From an uncultured Clostridia bacterium (GTDB lineage: Bacteria > Bacillota > Clostridia > Christensenellales > CAG-917), in NCBI GenBank assembly GCA_947165815.1, contig CAMVBZ010000002.1, positions 1 to 54,565 of the forward strand: a DNA stretch of 54,565 bases. The letters are read 5' to 3'. The notes beneath the pieces were generated by a model. The model was not told where the DNA came from and searched no databases. It saw only the letters and a program-made list of their open reading frames with translations. The number at the start of each line of letters is the position of its first letter. The first letter of the stretch is position 1. Below, piece after piece: positions 1 through 54,565 of this stretch. Made by a program: the position numbers and the translations under genes.

Positions 1-55
1 AAGCTTTAAAGATTTACGACAAGTTGCTATTGTATCTTTACAAGATGCTAATGTC
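1..55. repeat. Terminal direct duplication, copy 1 (identical to 54511-54565)
   Basis: aagctttaaagatttacgacaagttgctattgtatctttacaagatgctaatgtc is read at both window ends. This fits a circular or circularly permuted contig opened at an arbitrary point. Confidence 0.95.
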
Positions 56-460: not shown

Positions 461-730
461 TTACAAATCGCTTCCTGTAATGGCTTGTTTTAAAGTGTCA
501 AACTTAATATCGTTAGCACCTCTGTGCTCTACAATACTAATAATTTGACACTTATTAAATGCCTTTAATATTTTCTTAGAAAATATAAAGGCATATCCTT
601 TTTGAATTGTAAATAATGATGGTTTACTCCTATGCTTCTTTGCAAATTTAGGATAATATTGAATCTCAATGAGTTCAGTATTGTTCTCACAAAATTCAAT
701 TTCATAGGCTTTCAGTTTTCTAAACTTCAT
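461..730 (-). CDS. Hypothetical protein (89 aa)
   Basis: ORF track. ATG at 730 overlaps the stop of the upstream lipoprotein gene (ATGA). Lies in a co-oriented operon. Confidence 0.7.
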   Translation of the reverse strand: MKFRKLKAYEIEFCENNTELIEIQYYPKFAKKHRSKPSLFTIQKGYAFIFSKKILKAFNKCQIISIVEHRGANDIKFDTLKQAITGSDL

Positions 731-1083
731 GAGGATACCTCTGTTGATACAGTATATTTTGATGTTTCATTTAATCTAACAATACTTTCTTCAAAAAAGT
801 ATTCTGTTTCGTTATCACTAATTTGAAAAGAGTATATATCACCAATATTAAATTGGTCATAATCACCACCACTGACTTTTTTAACGTAAGGTTTTCGTTC
901 ATTAAATTGAAAATAATAATCGTGATGTGGGACAATTATTGTTGTCTTTCCTGTTCTAATTATTGATGACCAACGCCTGTCCCATTTATTTGTAATTAGA
1001 GATGAAACATAAATACCTGTACTGTTACAACTTGTAAGTAATAGCAATGGCAATATTAATAATGTTGTTAATAACTTTTTCAT
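727..1083 (-). CDS. Putative lipoprotein (118 aa)
   Basis: The N-terminus MKKLLTTLLILPLLLLTSC is a signal peptide plus lipobox cysteine. AGGAGG RBS lies upstream of ATG 1083. Confidence 0.8.
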   Translation of the reverse strand: MKKLLTTLLILPLLLLTSCNSTGIYVSSLITNKWDRRWSSIIRTGKTTIIVPHHDYYFQFNERKPYVKKVSGGDYDQFNIGDIYSFQISDNETEYFFEESIVRLNETSKYTVSTEVSS

Positions 1084-1102
1084 GATAATTCCTCCTTTGT
1101 CA

Positions 1103-1321
1103 TTACCTATCTCCTATCCACCAAACGATAAGCACGAATGAAAACAAAGTTAACAAGCCGCCTATTCCTGCACCTAAACCGACAAATCCAAGAATAAATA
1201 AAATCTCTGTTAGAGTGCTAATTTCACTCATATTATAAGAAATAATATGGCAAACAACACCACAAACAAACAAAGCAATTTGAATAAACAATAAGATAAG
1301 ACCAAAAATAATTCTTTTCAT
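1103..1321 (-). CDS. Small membrane protein (72 aa, two hydrophobic helices)
   Basis: Start trimmed to ATG 1321 (MKRIIFGLILLF...), which is preceded by AGGAG. The track ORF extends upstream to 1375 without an RBS. Confidence 0.7.
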   Translation of the reverse strand: MKRIIFGLILLFIQIALFVCGVVCHIISYNMSEISTLTEILFILGFVGLGAGIGGLLTLFSFVLIVWWIGDR

Positions 1322-1335
1322 TTTTCTAACTCCTC

Positions 1336-1542
1336 TTAATATAAATGCCATATAAGCATAAAAGGAATATAGCAAATTGCAATAGCTGTTAAAATAACAC
1401 TTACTAGCACATACCTACCACTTATAAAATCAAGTGGATGGGCATATTCTCTTAAGTATGCAAACCATATCCCAGCACTAACACAACCGTTTATAAATAA
1501 GGTTGTTAAAATACTTAATGTTATTTTTAAAAGTAGGCTCAT
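1336..1542 (-). CDS. Small membrane protein (68 aa, two hydrophobic helices)
   Basis: ATG 1542 (MSLLLKITLSILTTLF...) lies 5 nt after the DprA stop, with a GGGAG RBS. The track start at 1557 is GTG inside dprA. Confidence 0.65.
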   Translation of the reverse strand: MSLLLKITLSILTTLFINGCVSAGIWFAYLREYAHPLDFISGRYVLVSVILTAIAICYIPFMLIWHLY

Positions 1543-1547
1543 AATTA

Positions 1548-2339
1548 CTACTCCCACTTAAGATCTTCAAGAAGTGTTCGTCCATTTTCTATGACATTTG
1601 CACCCTCTTGAATTATCTCATTATTCACAGTCTTTTCAAAAATAGGTTGAGGAACAATGTATACAGGTTTGTTATTACCTACAGCAAGATTAACAGCAAT
1701 AGTTGTGCCACTAACATGAGAATTTACTTGTGGAACGATTAAAGCATTAGAAAGAGCTACTATTAATCTGTCACGCATTGGGAAATGTATCTTTTCAGCC
1801 TCAGAGATGTTTGGAAATTCACTGATAATTAGTCCTTCTTCCTTAATTTGATTATATAAAGGTTTATTCTTTGCAGGATAACAATAATCAATACCTGAAG
1901 GTAAAACTGCAATAGTTTTAATACCCTTGCTTAAAGCTTTTTTATGTGCAACGGTATCAATACCATTTGCTAATCCTGAAACTAAAACTTTATCCGTTCC
2001 TAATTCATCAATTAACTTTTCAGTTGCCATTTTACTATATTCACTACATTCTCTAGAACCGACAACAGCATAACGCTTCTTATCATCGTTCAATAAAGAA
2101 ATGTCACCATAATAGAACAACACTAAAGGTGGACGGAACATTTTCTTTAAAGTTTCTGGAAATTCCTTATCTAAATAAGTGATGACTTTACACTTAAGGT
2201 TATCACAGACTTTTTCTATTTCTTTATAAGGAACGTTTTCGTCCTCACGTAAACGAACAGCATTAATAATCTTAAATGGATCACCATTATATTTAACAGC
2301 TAAATAGATTAAAATCTTTTTGGAATCGTATTCCACCAT
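1548..2339 (-). CDS. dprA: DprA/Smf-family DNA-processing protein
   Basis: The Rossmann-like DprA core is readable: VVGSRECSEYS...VSGLANGIDTVAHKKAL...KTIAVLPSGIDYCYPAKNKPLY...GLIISEFP...HFPMRDRLIVALSNALIV...SGTTIAVNLAV...KPVYIVP. Confidence 0.85.
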   Translation of the reverse strand: MVEYDSKKILIYLAVKYNGDPFKIINAVRLREDENVPYKEIEKVCDNLKCKVITYLDKEFPETLKKMFRPPLVLFYYGDISLLNDDKKRYAVVGSRECSEYSKMATEKLIDELGTDKVLVSGLANGIDTVAHKKALSKGIKTIAVLPSGIDYCYPAKNKPLYNQIKEEGLIISEFPNISEAEKIHFPMRDRLIVALSNALIVPQVNSHVSGTTIAVNLAVGNNKPVYIVPQPIFEKTVNNEIIQEGANVIENGRTLLEDLKWE

Positions 2340-3157: not shown

Positions 3158-3265
3158 TGCCTAAGATAGGATTTGAACCTATGACTACCGACTAGACATA
3201 TGTTGTCGGTCTATACCACTGTTTCAGGTAACACTCCGAACTCTACCAGACTGAGTTACTTAGGC
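3158..3265 (-). tRNA. tRNA-like gene with canonical acceptor, D and T arms but an oversized 57-nt central region; anticodon not assignable
   Basis: Minus-strand read: GCCTAAG-TA-ACTC-AGTCTGGTA-GAGT-[57 nt]-ATAGG-TTCAAAT-CCTAT-CTTAGGC-A. The acceptor stem is a perfect 7 bp. No CCA is encoded. Confidence 0.55.
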
Positions 3266-22759: not shown

Positions 22760-22772
22760 CACAAACTATCAA

Positions 22773-22810
22773 AAGAGCCACGTACAACGTTAAGTATGGC
22801 TCTTTTCTTA
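22773..22810 (+). terminator. Rho-independent terminator ending the tail module
   Basis: AAGAGCCA...TGGCTCTT 8-bp stem (16-nt loop with inner TAC/GTA pairing) followed by TTCTTAAT. Confidence 0.65.
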
Positions 22811-22833: not shown

Positions 22834-22863
22834 TTGTTAATTTTTTGACAAGTATTGTATAAT
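22834..22863 (+). promoter_or_regulatory. Promoter (TTGTTA-N18-TATAAT, TG adjacent) carrying the conserved 24-nt motif TTTTTTGACAAGTATTGTATAATA
   Basis: Read directly. 21 of 24 bases match a second copy at 28756-28779. Confidence 0.5.
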
Positions 22864-22884: not shown

Positions 22885-23187
22885 ATGAATAAAGTTGAAA
22901 AAATTAATCCTGCAACAGGCAACGTTGCCTCAAACAGAGTAGTTGTTAACAATAAAATTTTTCAAGAGATTATTAACGCAGTTAATACTAATGCTGAAAC
23001 AACAAATAAAATTATTGACGTTGTAGCTCTTTTAGAACAAAAAATTACAGACTTAACTAAAGGTACAAATGATAAATTTGAAGAAGTCTTATCAGCTATT
23101 GATTCCATAAAGGCATCTGTATCAAAGAATGAAAACAATTTAACATCTTTAGCCAAGGCTGTAGCTACACTTCAAGGAATAAATTAA
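22885..23187 (+). CDS. Coiled-coil hypothetical protein (101 aa)
   Basis: ATG 22885 has AAAGGAG 7 nt upstream (the track start at 22855 overlaps the promoter). Confidence 0.7.
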   Translation: MNKVEKINPATGNVASNRVVVNNKIFQEIINAVNTNAETTNKIIDVVALLEQKITDLTKGTNDKFEEVLSAIDSIKASVSKNENNLTSLAKAVATLQGIN

Positions 23188-23198
23188 GGAGATCGTCT

Positions 23199-24083
23199 AT
23201 GTTCAAAATTCTATTTCTCACGGCTTTAGCCTCTGCAACCATTGCAAGCGGGCCAAACATCCAATTTACAAGTGATAGTGTATACACAAAGAATGACATT
23301 ATCTCCTGTGAAATTATCGAAATCCCAAATGCCGAAACTGGCGAAATTTCAAAAGACCTCATCATCAAAGAAAAACAACTCTTAGGTTATTCAATCTATG
23401 ACAACCAAGAAACCGATTATATCGATGGCTTAAAAATCGATGGTGAATGGGTCACTGGTTGGAGAGTTAAAAACTTTGATGATTCAGAAGATGCAGTGCA
23501 TACTTTCCAGGTAAAAACAGTATACACTGATGATGCTGCAGGTATGCTAATGGCAGCTAAAGATGGTGATTGGTCTAAACTTTTATCTAACCCATTAATC
23601 CTCTTACAAATGTTCTATTACATTTTAGCGGCATTCTCCATCTTATTTGGTATTATCTTTGGTACTAAACACAAAGGTAAGGCTATTAAGACTGCTAATG
23701 ATTTCGGTTTAGAATTGAATAATGTCTTCGCACAAAAAGTTGATGTGCTCGCCACCAATACAGAATCTGCCATTGAAAAATATGTAGATGCATTGCTTAT
23801 GCCAGTAATCGGTGAGATGCAAGCTCAAAATAAAGATTTACTTTCTGCACTTATTCTTTCACAATCTGGTGATGAAAAAGCAAAACTTGCATTAATCGAC
23901 TTATTAAAGAACTCTGCTAATAAAGACGTTAACTTAATGTCAGAACAAATTAAGAAAGCTATTAAAGATTTCAATCTTCAAAAAGAACTCTTAAAGGCTA
24001 CTGCAGAGAATACCATCAAAGAAATTGCAAACGGAAATTCTTCAGAGAACAAAGGAACAACGGATAACGGTACATCCATTTAA
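23199..24083 (+). CDS. Membrane protein with an N-terminal signal-like sequence, one central TM helix and a coiled-coil tail (294 aa)
   Basis: MFKILFLTALASATIASG at the N-terminus. Hydrophobic LILLQMFYYILAAFSILFGIIFG mid-protein. Confidence 0.75.
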   Translation: MFKILFLTALASATIASGPNIQFTSDSVYTKNDIISCEIIEIPNAETGEISKDLIIKEKQLLGYSIYDNQETDYIDGLKIDGEWVTGWRVKNFDDSEDAVHTFQVKTVYTDDAAGMLMAAKDGDWSKLLSNPLILLQMFYYILAAFSILFGIIFGTKHKGKAIKTANDFGLELNNVFAQKVDVLATNTESAIEKYVDALLMPVIGEMQAQNKDLLSALILSQSGDEKAKLALIDLLKNSANKDVNLMSEQIKKAIKDFNLQKELLKATAENTIKEIANGNSSENKGTTDNGTSI

Positions 24084-24086
24084 CTT

Positions 24087-24296
24087 ATGAAAAAGAAAAA
24101 CGCTACACTTATAATCTCACTTATCATTCTAGTCATTATAGCTATTGCTTTCCTCTTTATAGGGTATGCAATTTCAGGAGCAGATATTATAGCTTGGCTT
24201 AAATCTAAGTGGGCTATAACACTCTATGTTGCAATAACAGTATACGCACTTATTGTTGCAGGCATTCTTATAAGAGAAAGGATTAAAAAATTATGA
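24087..24296 (+). CDS. Small two-TM membrane protein (69 aa); holin-like topology
   Basis: Basic N-terminus MKKKN, two hydrophobic helices and a basic C-terminus RERIKKL. ATGA overlap with the next gene. Confidence 0.7.
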   Translation: MKKKNATLIISLIILVIIAIAFLFIGYAISGADIIAWLKSKWAITLYVAITVYALIVAGILIRERIKKL

Positions 24297-25267
24297 GTAG
24301 ATCACCAGAAGACCTCGTAAAGGCCGCTTCTAAATACGTTACGAAGAAAATCTTATTAGGTGTCACTGCCTTACTCATAGGTATGGCAATGATCGTCTTG
24401 TTCTCATTTGTTCCGTTTACCTGGGAACCAGATAACCTTAAATCAAATGAATTTATAACAGATACTCTTATCATCATAGCAATTACTATTCTAGGTATGG
24501 TGTGCCTGATATTCATTTCACAGGCAACTAATGCTAACAATCCAGCAAGTAGAATTGCCAAAGCTTCCGCAGCCTTTAAAGGTACGAAAGAACGTATCAC
24601 AGATAAGCACCGCTTTAAACAATGGATTAAAACTGTACAACAACCAAGAGATATTCTTGCGATTAAAGAGCGTACACTTTTCCAGGCAGGTATCGAAGAC
24701 ATCACAATCTTAAGTTTATCTGTTCCAGAAATACAATCCTTAACAAATCAAGCTCAGCTTATCAATGATACTCCTTATCCAGCATTATCTGAGGAGCAAG
24801 TAAAAGTCTGTCTTAAAGTAAAAGACGGATTAAAAGTCAAACTTCCTCCTCCAGAATATTACTTATCAGCAAAAACTATTTCTGATTCTAGAACACCATC
24901 AGAGCGTGCTAATAGTGAAGGTAGAAAGAAAAGAGATTTCGCTTTAGTTTCTATCGTTTCAAAAATCATTATAGTTATTGTAGTATCAATGATCTTCACA
25001 ATGTTTGCTAGAGATCTTGCTACTAAATTAGATGTCGGTAAAGCCTCTGCTAAATTTGCAGTTCGTATGATGAACTTATTCTCATCCATGTTTATGGGAT
25101 TCATTGTCGGAGGCCAGTTAAACGACATCGATGCAGAGTACGTAGAAATGCGTACTGAAATTCACGAAGAATATCTTGCAGACGATAAGTTTGAAACCAA
25201 ATCTATTAAGCAAGAAGCATTAGAGGAAATCAAACAACGTTCGCAACAAGATACGTTAGACAAATAA
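24293..25267 (+). CDS. Polytopic membrane protein (324 aa, about 4 TM helices around a soluble central domain)
   Basis: Hydrophobic segments LLGVTALLIGMAMIVLFSFVPF, LIIIAITILGMVCLIFIS, FALVSIVSKIIIVIVVSMIFTMFA and MMNLFSSMFMGFIVGG. Confidence 0.75.
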   Translation: MSRSPEDLVKAASKYVTKKILLGVTALLIGMAMIVLFSFVPFTWEPDNLKSNEFITDTLIIIAITILGMVCLIFISQATNANNPASRIAKASAAFKGTKERITDKHRFKQWIKTVQQPRDILAIKERTLFQAGIEDITILSLSVPEIQSLTNQAQLINDTPYPALSEEQVKVCLKVKDGLKVKLPPPEYYLSAKTISDSRTPSERANSEGRKKRDFALVSIVSKIIIVIVVSMIFTMFARDLATKLDVGKASAKFAVRMMNLFSSMFMGFIVGGQLNDIDAEYVEMRTEIHEEYLADDKFETKSIKQEALEEIKQRSQQDTLDK

Positions 25268-25305
25268 CGTCAAATAAACTATACTAAAGTAAAGGAGCTA
25301 AAATT

Positions 25306-25881
25306 ATGGCAGACGAATATACACTTCCACCAGAGGAAAACAATTCTTCAGCAGCCGCTAGAAAAGATCTTTTAATTTTCTGGCTCAGGATGTTTGGATG
25401 GGTAGCATCGGCTGTTGTTGCTCCTATTACTGTATTCTCCATTAAGTTTGGGCTATTCACAGAGTACGGTTACAAAGTCACAACAGATGACCTTGGTAAC
25501 GTTACAGGAATGAGAGTAGCTCTTAATGGATGGGGTATTGTTTCCATTGTCTTAGTCGCGTTTGCAGTCTTCTCCGTTTTGCACGAAGTCATAGATGCTT
25601 ACTCTAAAAAATATTCTTACGCAAAACAAATCCTTCTTGGATTGAAAAATAAAATTTTACCTATTGCTGTTGCTTTAGGTATTTGCTATTTCTTGAAAGG
25701 TGTTGTTGACCAAATTATATTCTGTCTATTTACAATCGGCATTTCACAACTGGCAGCAACATGTTTAAATCCTTTACCAAAATGGAAATCCGAAAAGAAG
25801 GGTGAAGAAGACTACTCCGACTTACTTTCAATGGTACCTAAGTACTTGAAAGCAAAGATGAAAAAGGAGGGAATTAAGTAA
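25306..25881 (+). CDS. Polytopic membrane protein (191 aa, about 4-5 TM helices)
   Basis: Hydrophobic segments are visible by eye. AAAGGAG RBS. The stop overlaps the next start (TAATG). Confidence 0.75.
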   Translation: MADEYTLPPEENNSSAAARKDLLIFWLRMFGWVASAVVAPITVFSIKFGLFTEYGYKVTTDDLGNVTGMRVALNGWGIVSIVLVAFAVFSVLHEVIDAYSKKYSYAKQILLGLKNKILPIAVALGICYFLKGVVDQIIFCLFTIGISQLAATCLNPLPKWKSEKKGEEDYSDLLSMVPKYLKAKMKKEGIK

Positions 25882-26855
25882 TGGCTTATATAACATTAAC
25901 TGCTGGTGCCATTGCCGCTATCATTGCAGCATTAGCTGCTGCAGGTGGGACAGCCACTGGTGTACAAGTTGGAAACGCTAATGCTTCAGCATCTAGTAAT
26001 AAAGCGTTAGCAAACTATTTACGTCAAAGCCATCCAGAGCTTTCTCAATCTCAAATAGAGGCATTAGTTGCTCAATATGGTGATGATGGTTTTAATTTAT
26101 TTAATGCAAACACCTGGACAGATAAAACTGACAGAGCCGGCTTAGAGAAAATGTTAGATGACATAAATAATGCCTATAATGATTTAGGCACTATGCCTGA
26201 ATTTTTATCTTTAGATGAGCTCACTAACATTGAAAACCAAGCTCGTGGAGAAATAGATGCTGAAAATCGACAAATCCTAGATTTATACGATCAAGCAGCT
26301 GGTAATGTAAATAATTTATTACAGCAACAATTTGACGAAAATAATCAAATGTTCGCTGATTATAGAAATCAAGCATTAACGAACGAAGCAATGCAACAAC
26401 AAGCTATTGCTGGTTCTACTCGTTATGAATTAGATCGTTCAAAACGTAATGCTATTATACGTGGGGCTAGTGCTGCCCAACGTTTGGTTGCTAACATTAA
26501 TACACAACTTGGAATGCAAGCAAAATCTGCACAGCAATCTCTAGACACATCCAATGCCCTTGCACAACAACTCCTTGCTCATAGACAAGCACAATCCAGT
26601 TTACGTCAAGATTATATGAATAATATGAATCAAAACCTTATGAATCGTGCTAACCTATTAAAAGGTGGTGCTGAACGTAAGTTAAGTTACGCTCAATCTC
26701 AAATGGATCATACATTGAATAGAAACCAATACGCTAGAGATGCCTGGAACAATCGTGTCAATGATTACTTCCAAGGTAATTCCTTAGGTGAAGGTATCTA
26801 TAGAAATAGATATGGCAGTGCTGCAAATAGAAATAATAACAACAATAGTTATTAA
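25881..26855 (+). CDS. Q/N-rich protein with an N-terminal hydrophobic Ala/Gly helix (324 aa)
   Basis: MAYITLTAGAIAAIIAALAAAGG, then long Q/N/A-rich helical sequence ending in ...NRNNNNNSY. Confidence 0.75.
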   Translation: MAYITLTAGAIAAIIAALAAAGGTATGVQVGNANASASSNKALANYLRQSHPELSQSQIEALVAQYGDDGFNLFNANTWTDKTDRAGLEKMLDDINNAYNDLGTMPEFLSLDELTNIENQARGEIDAENRQILDLYDQAAGNVNNLLQQQFDENNQMFADYRNQALTNEAMQQQAIAGSTRYELDRSKRNAIIRGASAAQRLVANINTQLGMQAKSAQQSLDTSNALAQQLLAHRQAQSSLRQDYMNNMNQNLMNRANLLKGGAERKLSYAQSQMDHTLNRNQYARDAWNNRVNDYFQGNSLGEGIYRNRYGSAANRNNNNNSY

Positions 26856-26869
26856 TAGGAGGAAATAGT

Positions 26870-27649
26870 ATGTATTACGATGATCTACTTCAAGAATTAA
26901 TGGCTGACAACTACTCTAGACAAGAAGCTATTAATATGATTAATACAGGTATGATTGGAGCCTCAAGTCTTAGTCCATCAGGCGGTGCAACTCCTGGAGT
27001 AAATCCTGGAGCATTGTCTGGTGTTAGAGCTTTCTTTAGTAAGTACTTTAATAAACCTGGAAGTAAAGAACCTTTATTTAAAGGTAGTGTTTCTTTACCA
27101 AGCTTAAAAGGACTTAGAGAACAACCTGTCTGGCAAGACGGCCCATCAGTTGGTGGTGTTGCAAGAACCGGTATGGGACTCTATCAAGGTGCTAAAGCCT
27201 TTAAAGGTCTTACTGAAAATGCTGGTAAAGACAGCGACTACAATTCCTTAAAGAATGACATTAATTTATCTATTGCCTCAAACCCAATGTACGATATGTA
27301 TCTAGACGCTGCTGATGAAAAACGTCTTCGTCAGATGCGTAATGGCAGCCTCAATAACGGTATGAATGGTGCGTTAGAAGGTGGTATGAAAGGCATTCCT
27401 CAAGCCCTATTGTCCGCTTTAATTGGTGGTGTTGTAGGTGGTGGTGCAGGTGCTGCTATCAATGGTATTGGTAGTTTAGTCAACTCTGGTATCCAAGGAT
27501 ATGGTAATTCTATGGACAAAGCCACAGGTGAACTTCAAGGTCTTTACAGTAAATTAAGACAAGCCGATTCCGAATACAAGACAATGAAGCGTCCTACTGG
27601 TTTAGGTAGAGCTGGTCTTTCCACACACTACTTCAATCAACTTTACTAG
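26870..27649 (+). CDS. Glycine-rich (glycine-zipper-like) protein (259 aa)
   Basis: LLSALIGGVVGGGAGAAINGIGSLVNSGIQGYG. AGGAGGA RBS. Confidence 0.75.
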   Translation: MYYDDLLQELMADNYSRQEAINMINTGMIGASSLSPSGGATPGVNPGALSGVRAFFSKYFNKPGSKEPLFKGSVSLPSLKGLREQPVWQDGPSVGGVARTGMGLYQGAKAFKGLTENAGKDSDYNSLKNDINLSIASNPMYDMYLDAADEKRLRQMRNGSLNNGMNGALEGGMKGIPQALLSALIGGVVGGGAGAAINGIGSLVNSGIQGYGNSMDKATGELQGLYSKLRQADSEYKTMKRPTGLGRAGLSTHYFNQLY

Positions 27650-27662
27650 GAGGGGATAGATT

Positions 27663-28160
27663 ATGGCAAAAATGATTAACGATTTATTCCAAAAGCTAAT
27701 GAGAAGTCCTTTCGGTATGGCAGCCTCTGAACAAATGTTCAATGCAGGGTCAGACAATTCAAGAGCTGATTTCCTAGCCAAGTACCCTGGCCCTGATGCA
27801 GATAAAGCTATTGGTGATATGAAAGACTACAATCCATTTGCTAGTGCAATGCAAGACTCAAATATTGGCCCGTCTGCTTTAGGATCATTAGCTTTAAATG
27901 CTGCAAAAGAACATCCATTTAAAACTGCTGGTCTTGTCGGTTTAGGTGCTGGCAATATTGGTGGTTTAATGGATAATAACAAATTCGGTGGTCAGTTAAG
28001 TGGTCTAGCCCTTGGTGGTTTAGGTTCTTATCTAATGGGAGCCAGTCCATACACTGCTGCAATAATGACAATGGGTGGTGGTGAGCTCGGTGCACTTTTT
28101 GACAAATTACGTGCAAAGAAAGAACAAGAACAAACTCAACCTTATTATGGAGGTAGATAA
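27663..28160 (+). CDS. Glycine-zipper-like protein (165 aa)
   Basis: GLVGLGAGNIGGLMDNNKFGGQLSGLALGGLGSYLMGASPYTAAIMTMGGGELGALF. AGGAGGG RBS. Confidence 0.75.
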   Translation: MAKMINDLFQKLMRSPFGMAASEQMFNAGSDNSRADFLAKYPGPDADKAIGDMKDYNPFASAMQDSNIGPSALGSLALNAAKEHPFKTAGLVGLGAGNIGGLMDNNKFGGQLSGLALGGLGSYLMGASPYTAAIMTMGGGELGALFDKLRAKKEQEQTQPYYGGR

Positions 28161-28162
28161 CC

Positions 28163-28732
28163 ATGGCAATTAATCCAATGTTATTAATGCAAGCATTACG
28201 AATGGCTCCACAACTTATGGGAGCTTTAAAATATGCTCTCGGTGGATACTCTCCTAACCCTAACGGTGTTGATACTTCTATTGAAGAAGCTATCAATAGA
28301 AACTATGACCCTAAACTTTTAGAAGACAAGTTCACATACAAAACGTATTTACAAGATTATCCAGATAACATAGCGTTACGCCAGTTAAATGATGAATATA
28401 GTAAATACATAAATAACTCTGATTTTACAAATACTGCACAAGGCTTTCCATCAGATTGGGCAGACAATTCAGATCTAGCCAACCTAGCCGATCGTATGTT
28501 AGGTAATCCTAATATTGTAGACACACCTGCTTTAACATCTGCGGCTGTAATGCTCAATAATGGATTATTAACAGATGATCCTCCAATTCCTGGTGAAGAA
28601 CCTCCTCATCCAACAGGTAGCCCAACATTTGCTAGTCATCTAGGTGAACTCTTACACGATACAGATGGCAGCCAAGATGAAGATGCCCGTAAGGCTTACC
28701 TAGAATGGTTTAGAACACACGGTTATAAATAA
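28163..28732 (+). CDS. Hypothetical protein (189 aa)
   Basis: ORF track. GGAGG RBS. It is the last gene before a strong terminator. Confidence 0.75.
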   Translation: MAINPMLLMQALRMAPQLMGALKYALGGYSPNPNGVDTSIEEAINRNYDPKLLEDKFTYKTYLQDYPDNIALRQLNDEYSKYINNSDFTNTAQGFPSDWADNSDLANLADRMLGNPNIVDTPALTSAAVMLNNGLLTDDPPIPGEEPPHPTGSPTFASHLGELLHDTDGSQDEDARKAYLEWFRTHGYK

Positions 28733-28761
28733 GACCTATTCCTTAGGTCTTTTTCTTTTTT
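28731..28761 (+). terminator. Rho-independent terminator
   Basis: AAGACCTA-ttcct-TAGGTCTT perfect 8-bp stem followed by TTTCTTTTTT. Confidence 0.85.
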
Positions 28762-54456: not shown

Positions 54457-54565
54457 CTAAGGGATTACTTCTACTTTCATAGATTCTAACGTAGCTAACT
54501 TTTGTTCATAAAGCTTTAAAGATTTACGACAAGTTGCTATTGTATCTTTACAAGATGCTAATGTC
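54457..54565 (-). CDS. C-terminal end of the junction-spanning 152-aa ORF (see 1..405)
   Basis: Reading 54510 down to 54457 gives YEQKLATLESMKVEVIP-stop, in frame with codon 135 at base 1. Bases 54511-54565 duplicate 1-55. Confidence 0.7.
   Translation of the reverse strand, partial: TLASCKDTIATCRKSLKLYEQKLATLESMKVEVIP
54511..54565. repeat. Terminal direct duplication, copy 2 (identical to 1-55)
   Basis: Exact 55-nt match read directly. Confidence 0.95.

Follow-up and report, generated by a model that had tools for sequence, protein, structure and literature searches.

What would a tailed phage do with four consecutive membrane proteins in its late operon and no lysin gene beside them? The question arises from the window analysed here, a stretch of 54,565 nucleotides that makes up the entire contig C2 (CAMVBZ010000002.1) of a 1.40-Mb metagenome-assembled genome (MAG; 119 contigs, 95% complete) of an uncultured Clostridia bacterium. 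Between positions 23199 and 25881 the window carries four genes, named A to D here and together called the cassette, for which an earlier note on this DNA had offered three possible roles: a multi-component lysis or egress device, a DNA-ejection conduit, or late superinfection exclusion. We favour the first of these, in the form of an endolysin-free, multi-subunit module with holin function for a wall-less host, and hold this reading with confidence and doubt about equally balanced.

A cassette of four membrane proteins in a phage late arm

The terminal 55 bases of the window (1-55 and 54511-54565) are identical, and the window was therefore taken as a complete, circularly assembled phage genome of ~54.5 kb; its G+C content is 35%. 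The plus-strand arm (6.2-34.3 kb) encodes terminase, portal, HK97-type capsid protein, tail proteins, fibres, several low-complexity proteins and a giant protein of 1752 aa, and the opposite strand encodes Pol A, primase, helicase, a RecE-like nuclease, DprA and an FtsH/CobS/CobT trio. Because tail tube, sheath and tape measure are all absent from the window phage, its plan is that of a podovirus. A genome-wide hydropathy scan revealed that A to D are the sole polytopic membrane proteins encoded on the late strand, while the downstream proteins E and F have one hydrophobic segment each. The four genes, with their transmembrane segments (TMs) and the basis of each description, including the list of open reading frames (ORFs), are given below.

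23199 to 24083, plus strand: A, 294 aa (ORF list, hydropathy, alignment A6)
24087 to 24296, plus strand: B, 69 aa, a two-TM hairpin (hydropathy)
24293 to 25267, plus strand: C, 324 aa (hydropathy, homologue search, AF2 model)
25306 to 25881, plus strand: D, 191 aa, four TMs (hydropathy, homologue searches, AF2 model)

Hydropathy bears out the topologies that the earlier note had proposed for these four consecutive ORFs. A begins with a signal-like h-region (MFKILFLTALASATIA) and has a single TM at residues 131-157; by alignment A6 the protein consists of a variable ectodomain (in relatives, anything from a folded domain of ~100 aa to a short acidic linker) and two conserved parts, a helical domain in the cytoplasm (ALSQENTPESRxAILDxL-type motif) and the C-terminal tail. 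In the same alignment the extreme C-terminus of the family (...D-G-T-S-I-COOH) is kept in distant relatives, the remainder of the tail being variable, and this DGTSI end looks like a docking peptide for some partner. B consists of two very hydrophobic TMs between basic ends (MKKK... and ...RERIKKL) and has, judged from its sequence, the shape of a class-II holin. For C, where about four TMs had been expected, there are three strong helices (~22-44, 55-78 and 218-240) and an amphipathic fourth (~255-275), so arranged that two N-terminal TMs are followed by a conserved cytoplasmic domain of ~135 aa, two more membrane helices and a long C-terminal helix. D, expected to have four to five TMs, has four; its topology is predicted as N-in/C-in by the positive-inside rule, its C-terminal tail is charged, and its conserved motifs are FWxR, GWG, Q..G..K..LPL and NPxPxW. 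Mean TM hydropathy is 2.5-3.3 in B and C and ~1.9-2.5 in D. By the size and charge expected of a holin (~60-150 aa, at least one TM, charged C-terminus), B fits, D is borderline, and A and C fall outside.

The genes are closely packed. A and B are 3 nt apart, B and C overlap by ATGA (24293-24296), C and D are separated by 38 nt containing an AAGGAG ribosome-binding site, and D and E share a single base (TAATG, 25881), so that the ATGA/TAATG coupling described earlier is present at the B/C and D/E junctions.

Over 15 contigs of uncultured phages, 35-79 kb long, keep the gene order A-D, and the order small coiled coil, A, (B), C, D recurs in contigs from IMG/VR, Logan and MAGs. The large block to which the earlier note had drawn attention is far from a chance occurrence, and the same gene order was read in 11 loci (L001, L003, L004, L007, L010, L013, L014, L037, L042, L047 and L049). 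Identity to a 79-kb relative is 43% for B, 41% for C and 29% for D. Among 5.8 billion proteins C has 21 relatives, none of them named or assigned a Pfam domain; D is the widest of the four families, with 72 representatives at 50% clustering and 190 proteins by profile. The usual place of the cassette is between the fibre genes and the Gly-rich and giant genes, while in L004 the giant gene is upstream and the late arm ends with the cassette. The cassette was also sought in 200 genomes of the host's order and was absent from them.

Two of the relatives carry further genes of note. Adjoining the tail genes of L004, just upstream of the cassette, is a reverse transcriptase (L004:7614-8555, plus strand; RVT_1, 2.7e-17), which probably belongs to a diversity-generating retroelement aimed at a fibre gene. 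The 62.7-kb relative G217 (loci L019-L022) has two DNA methylases, a Sak annealase and anti-Thoeris domains of the Tad2-like and Tad3 kinds, so that the phage group includes a carrier of counter-defence genes.

Sister phages carry a recognised holin in the same slot

Relatives of the window phage were gathered by terminase and then searched for D. In G223, a complete 53-kb genome with a direct terminal repeat whose large terminase subunit (TerL) is 64% identical to that of the window, the D family is absent. The late arm of G223 is collinear with that of the window (E is 35% identical, 1e-30; the giant is 33-40% identical, 5e-145), and a single ORF, of 99 aa with one TM, fills the interval from the last fibre gene to E. 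This ORF exceeds the cut-off of PF09682, Phage_holin_6_1 (Holin_LLH), and its homologues at 60-67% identity are assigned to PF09682 in precomputed annotation. A second relative, G226 (TerL 69%), has the order fibre, LLH, E-like, as in G223. Thus both cassette-free close relatives carry PF09682, none of the 11 cassette-bearing records does, and the window phage lacks it. From this distribution it follows that a single phage clade has two alternative occupants of the slot, a recognised holin and the A-D cassette, which do not occur together.

The two occupants are alike in slot (last fibre gene to E), late operon, membrane location and lack of an adjacent lysin. They differ in that Holin_LLH is a single 99-aa protein with one TM, whereas the cassette comprises four proteins of 69-324 aa with 1-4 TMs and has no sequence similarity to it.

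Two more late membrane proteins of G223 are missing from the window. The first, encoded immediately upstream of the giant gene (L131:13145-13588, minus strand), is a TM protein of 147 aa that contains HESGH, an HExxH motif; the second is a 92-aa protein with a TM and a coiled coil, BhlA/XhlA-like in shape, with a weak PF09682 match (E 0.003; L131:15146-15424, minus strand).

No lysin is recognisable and the host appears to be wall-less

The earlier note had seen no lysin next to the block, and Pfam searches for a lysin or wall hydrolase found none in the window phage, either adjacent or elsewhere in the genome. The giant, 1216-aa and 303-aa proteins of the window matched nothing in sequence searches of the PDB. 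Recognisable wall hydrolases were likewise lacking from two complete relatives, G220 (41 ORFs) and G217 (70 ORFs), Amidase_2 was found in none of seven records, and the 20-kb late region of a G223-type phage contained no lysin.

The MAG itself lacks both the penicillin-binding protein (PBP) transpeptidase domain (PF00905) and the SEDS protein FtsW/RodA (PF01098), and yielded only one weak match to a Mur-ligase domain. PBP and SEDS are missing from all four genomes of its genus (G000, G201-G203) and from a further genus in the family, whereas its other genera have 2-3 PBPs; one SEDS protein was counted in each of the three genera checked (G036, G069 and G212). On this gene content, the genus of the MAG seems to be a wall-less branch within a group of walled Clostridia with small genomes. 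G215, the only other MAG with a related phage contig, also lacks PBP and SEDS. This 1.8-Mb MAG is titled Gemmiger formicilis, which is probably a mislabel because its sampled contigs are low in G+C (29-36%; phage contig 29%) and PBP and SEDS are lacking; on the same grounds, the title was rejected as evidence for a walled host. We infer that the MAG is the true host of the window phage.

A to D match no known family

Scans of A to D and their neighbours against Pfam and PHROG gave no match over threshold, and the placement in well-known holin families that the earlier note had named as a possible outcome of profile searches was not found. The only Pfam match of A is to Relaxase_C, below threshold (17.7 bits, cut-off 30), and a Pfam scan of four A-like proteins gave nothing over cut-off. 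Sixty-two homologues of D gave only scattered single matches to unrelated Pfam families, none of them a holin family, and 65 cassette members gave no real match to PHROGs. Family profiles of C and D matched no PDB sequence. The AF2 models of C and D have pLDDT values of 77 and 80; Foldseek comparison with the PDB returned best E-values of 0.68 and 3.6 with TM-scores below 0.3, and comparison of C with BFVD returned only three uncharacterised phage proteins of ~300 aa. Megablast and tblastn searches of 50,697 GenBank phages were all null, whether the query was the region, C, D or either of the small membrane proteins of G223, so that no relative of C or D was found there.

Two further identities were considered. 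A channel resembling a type IV secretion system was rejected for want of profile support, as A to D have no Pfam match to its membrane components (VirB3/VirB6/VirB8-like). Nor does a spanin identity fit, for which an inner-membrane coiled-coil protein would be paired with an outer-membrane lipoprotein in a diderm host: a lipobox was looked for in A to D and is absent, and the host lineage, which lacks wall polymerases, is monoderm and of the Clostridia type. By these searches, the cassette appears to be previously undescribed and built from new membrane-protein families.

Transcription unit and neighbouring genes

The following features surround the cassette.

22772 to 22805, plus strand: hairpin AAAGAGCCA ... 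TGGCTCTTT with a 16-nt loop, then a T-rich run (read from the sequence)
22834 to 22863, plus strand: promoter-like TTGTTA-18-TATAAT with TG before the -10 box, the top sigma-70-like match in the region (10/12, a consensus match only)
22885 to 23187, plus strand: Z, 100 aa, a coiled coil without TM, with its ATG at 22885 after AAAGGAG (sequence)
25881 to 28732, plus strand: E to H, four proteins of the same transcription unit, three rich in Gln/Asn or Gly (ORF list, hydropathy)
28731 to 28751, plus strand: intrinsic-terminator-like hairpin and T run that ends the unit (terminator scan)

The first hairpin, which a simple terminator scanner missed owing to its long loop, lies 3' of the last fibre gene and resembles the terminator end of the preceding unit. 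The promoter-like site appears to mark the start of the transcription unit that contains the cassette; the earlier note had given the block a promoter of its own, and a promoter-like site is indeed there, but Z stands between it and A. L042, L013, L014 and L004 likewise have a small coiled-coil gene 5' of their A-like gene, and in the remaining loci read that position is taken by small ORFs of 77-141 aa. Z may be part of the cassette. Beyond D the unit continues through E to H to the terminator, so that A to D share strand and unit with virion genes and are flanked by promoter-like and terminator-like sites. Gut metagenomes of cattle and sheep contain near-identical sequence. In three metatranscriptome runs of bovine gut, contigs cover A to D (one 995-nt piece comprises the end of A, the whole of B and part of C); these contigs may contain DNA and do not give timing, and are consistent with transcription of the cassette.

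E begins, as the earlier note had remarked, with a hydrophobic helix, here rich in Ala and Gly, and F and G carry small-xxx-small runs. Gly-rich small-xxx-small proteins (F and G, 25881-28160; a 164-aa protein at L042:2893-3387 in a 38-kb relative) recur in all these phages, G223 and G226 included, and are likely membrane-active ejection proteins. The cultured relatives nearest by head genes are the Paenibacillus phages API480 and SV21 (TerL 37%, portal 27%), whose host is walled. API480 shares the genome plan of the window, including a giant of 1631 aa, and lacks A to D; its lysis genes form a separate holin_BhlA-amidase-holin cassette, the holins being holin_BhlA and phage_holin_5 (PMC6937236). 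Its gp14-16, the positional counterparts of the downstream Gly/Gln/Asn-rich proteins and giant of the window, are abundant in particle preparations (PMC6937236), which argues that E to H and the giant are virion proteins; gp14 and gp15, which correspond by position to E to H, were detected there by mass spectrometry. E to H are probably internal or ejection proteins of the virion, flanking the cassette but outside it.

On the early strand, downstream of dprA (727-1557, minus strand), a lipoprotein of 118 aa (lipobox LLLLTSC) and two short proteins of 90 and 73 aa with two TMs each are encoded; these are better candidates for superinfection exclusion than A to D. At 3158-3265 (minus strand) an Rfam tRNA match of 44 bits spans 108 nt, while ARAGORN reports no tRNA in the window; this may be an intron-containing or otherwise unusual phage tRNA.

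Function of the cassette and competing explanations

As a lysis module, A to D, possibly together with Z, would form a late-expressed complex in the host cytoplasmic membrane, which would accumulate there during virion assembly and then breach the membrane, freeing the progeny; in a host without a peptidoglycan wall, a wall hydrolase would be unneeded. B (two TMs) and D (four TMs, charged C-tail), both compact and almost wholly membrane-embedded, would be the likely lesion formers, and A and C, with their conserved cytoplasmic domains (and, in A, a variable ectodomain), the likely scaffold or timing (antiholin-like) subunits. Both the lytic function and this division of labour are what we infer. 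The lysis role is favoured because Holin_LLH fills the same slot in the sister phages, the two occupants are complementary in distribution, no recognisable lysin is encoded and the host is apparently wall-less. The window phage has no other late polytopic membrane protein, which makes A to D the candidate holin substitute. Further reasons for the lysis role are that B and D are holin-like in size, topology and charged C-termini, that the cassette is the end of the late arm in L004, that metatranscriptome contigs cover A to D, and that API480, a phage of a walled host, has its own holin-amidase-holin cassette and no A to D.

Multi-gene holins are familiar from Gram-positive systems, such as the holin_BhlA plus phage_holin_5 set of API480, the XhlA-XhlB-type pairs of Bacillus PBSX/SPP1 and the two-holin systems of mycobacteriophages. 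They resemble A to D in having several late lysis membrane proteins, small proteins with charged C-termini and a coiled-coil partner (compare Z). They differ in that they flank the endolysin and have subunits below 150 aa, whereas the cassette has no lysin, includes two subunits of ~300 aa with cytoplasmic domains, and shares no family with them.

Several points weigh against a lysis role for A to D. To our knowledge, four or five conserved subunits, two of them with sizeable cytoplasmic domains, go far beyond the needs of any known holin; B, the most holin-like member, is missing from the cassettes of L037 and L042; and neither the Pfam and PHROG scans nor the Foldseek comparisons provide a link to a holin family or fold. 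In L042 the cassette stands amid tail genes, between a 910-aa tail protein and the fibres, and the slot after the tail-fibre genes is in any case a common insertion site for accessory genes, where position alone is no proof of common function. The holin scans of G220 and G217 covered ORFs of 100 aa and above, and the metatranscriptome contigs may include DNA carry-over. As for the host, the phage was assigned to it by binning only, a search for CRISPR spacer-like exact matches of at least 22 nt found none, and three congeneric genomes are without the cassette. Confidence is kept near the midpoint because the set is large and complex, B is dispensable and there is no link to a holin family.

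The conserved domains of A and C face the cytoplasm, and the cassette is surrounded in every case by genes for tail, ejection and giant proteins; both observations would also suit a membrane-anchored platform for egress or assembly. A and C, through their cytoplasmic domains (that of A with its DGTSI tail), would sense or dock virions or Gly-zipper ejection proteins, B and D would open or remodel the membrane, and vesicle-type or gated release from the wall-less cell would be coupled to maturation and might spare the cell at first. Such a multi-subunit egress machine of tailed phages on wall-less gut and rumen Clostridia is unlikely, if the strongest of the competitors. Apparent hosts are wall-less, and non-lytic release by budding is known for plasmavirus L2 of the wall-less Acholeplasma (PMC8440029), which has in common with the lysis reading of A to D a lysin-free release across the single membrane of a wall-less host. 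L2, however, is enveloped and tailless, whereas the window phage has a tail, a portal, a terminase and a head of the HK97 type. Budding is not known for any tailed phage, the sister phages manage with a holin of 99 aa in the slot of the cassette, and neither an ATPase nor a fission-type domain is present.

Late superinfection exclusion or receptor masking, by which A to D would block DNA entry of later phages or spare progeny from membrane debris, with the variable ectodomain of A facing the receptor, comes next and is doubtful too. The ectodomain of A is strongly variable among relatives while the rest is conserved, and the cassette adjoins the fibre genes; known exclusion proteins (T4 Imm/Sp, HK97 gp15, P22 SieA, lactococcal Sie2009) are small proteins of the cytoplasmic membrane, sometimes encoded near tail genes, which counts for this explanation. 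T4 Imm/Sp, HK97 gp15 and Sie2009 are, however, single genes expressed early or from the prophage, whereas A to D are a translationally coupled late four-gene set transcribed with structural genes. The ectodomain is a mere short acidic linker in several relatives, and the phage would be left without any lysis function. The exclusion role suggested in the earlier note keeps a small share of the probability, reduced by the separate early two-TM proteins and lipoprotein, which fit the role better.

Polytopic immunity proteins protect the producers of Gly-rich bacteriocins, and by analogy A to D could provide immunity to, or chaperone, the glycine-zipper and Gln/Asn-rich proteins E to H that the phage itself makes, preventing cell death before packaging. 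The co-transcription of A to D with E to H and the small-xxx-small runs in F and G agree with this, but G223, G226 and API480 have E-H-like proteins and no A to D, and the Gly-rich gene of L042 lies apart from the cassette, which makes the explanation very unlikely. Least probable of all, to the point of having been rejected, is the virion-borne conduit suggested in the earlier note, in which A to D would be packaged and inserted into the target membrane like T7 gp14-16. The ejection proteins T7 gp14-gp15-gp16 and P22 gp7/gp20/gp16 are packaged, lack signal peptides and are not polytopic. Their genes are like A to D in lying in a podovirus late operon and adjoining tail genes and a giant internal protein, and the cassette does lie between tail genes and probable internal proteins. 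Yet A bears a secretion signal, the classical TM helices of B to D would insert co-translationally into the producer's membrane, and the sister phages and API480 keep ejection-type genes without A to D; E to H and the 1752-aa protein are more likely the T7/P22-type counterpart in the window phage than A to D are.

Weighed against these alternatives, the cassette is in function probably a holin-type lysis system, with new families, an unusual architecture and an unusual biological setting.

Biological significance

The window phage belongs to a large and widespread group of uncultured gut and rumen phages without a recognisable endolysin, in contrast to the textbook holin-endolysin-spanin scheme. 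One genomic slot in this group holds two interchangeable solutions, a 99-aa LLH holin or a four-to-five-gene cassette of new families. The apparently wall-less host genus, which has lost its wall polymerases, is interesting in its own right. If the lysis role of A to D is confirmed, at least four new protein families would join the lysis repertoire, and phages of the G223 type and of the window type would form a natural pair for asking what the extra subunits add. The cassette would then illustrate how wall-less cells other than Mollicutes release their tailed phages.

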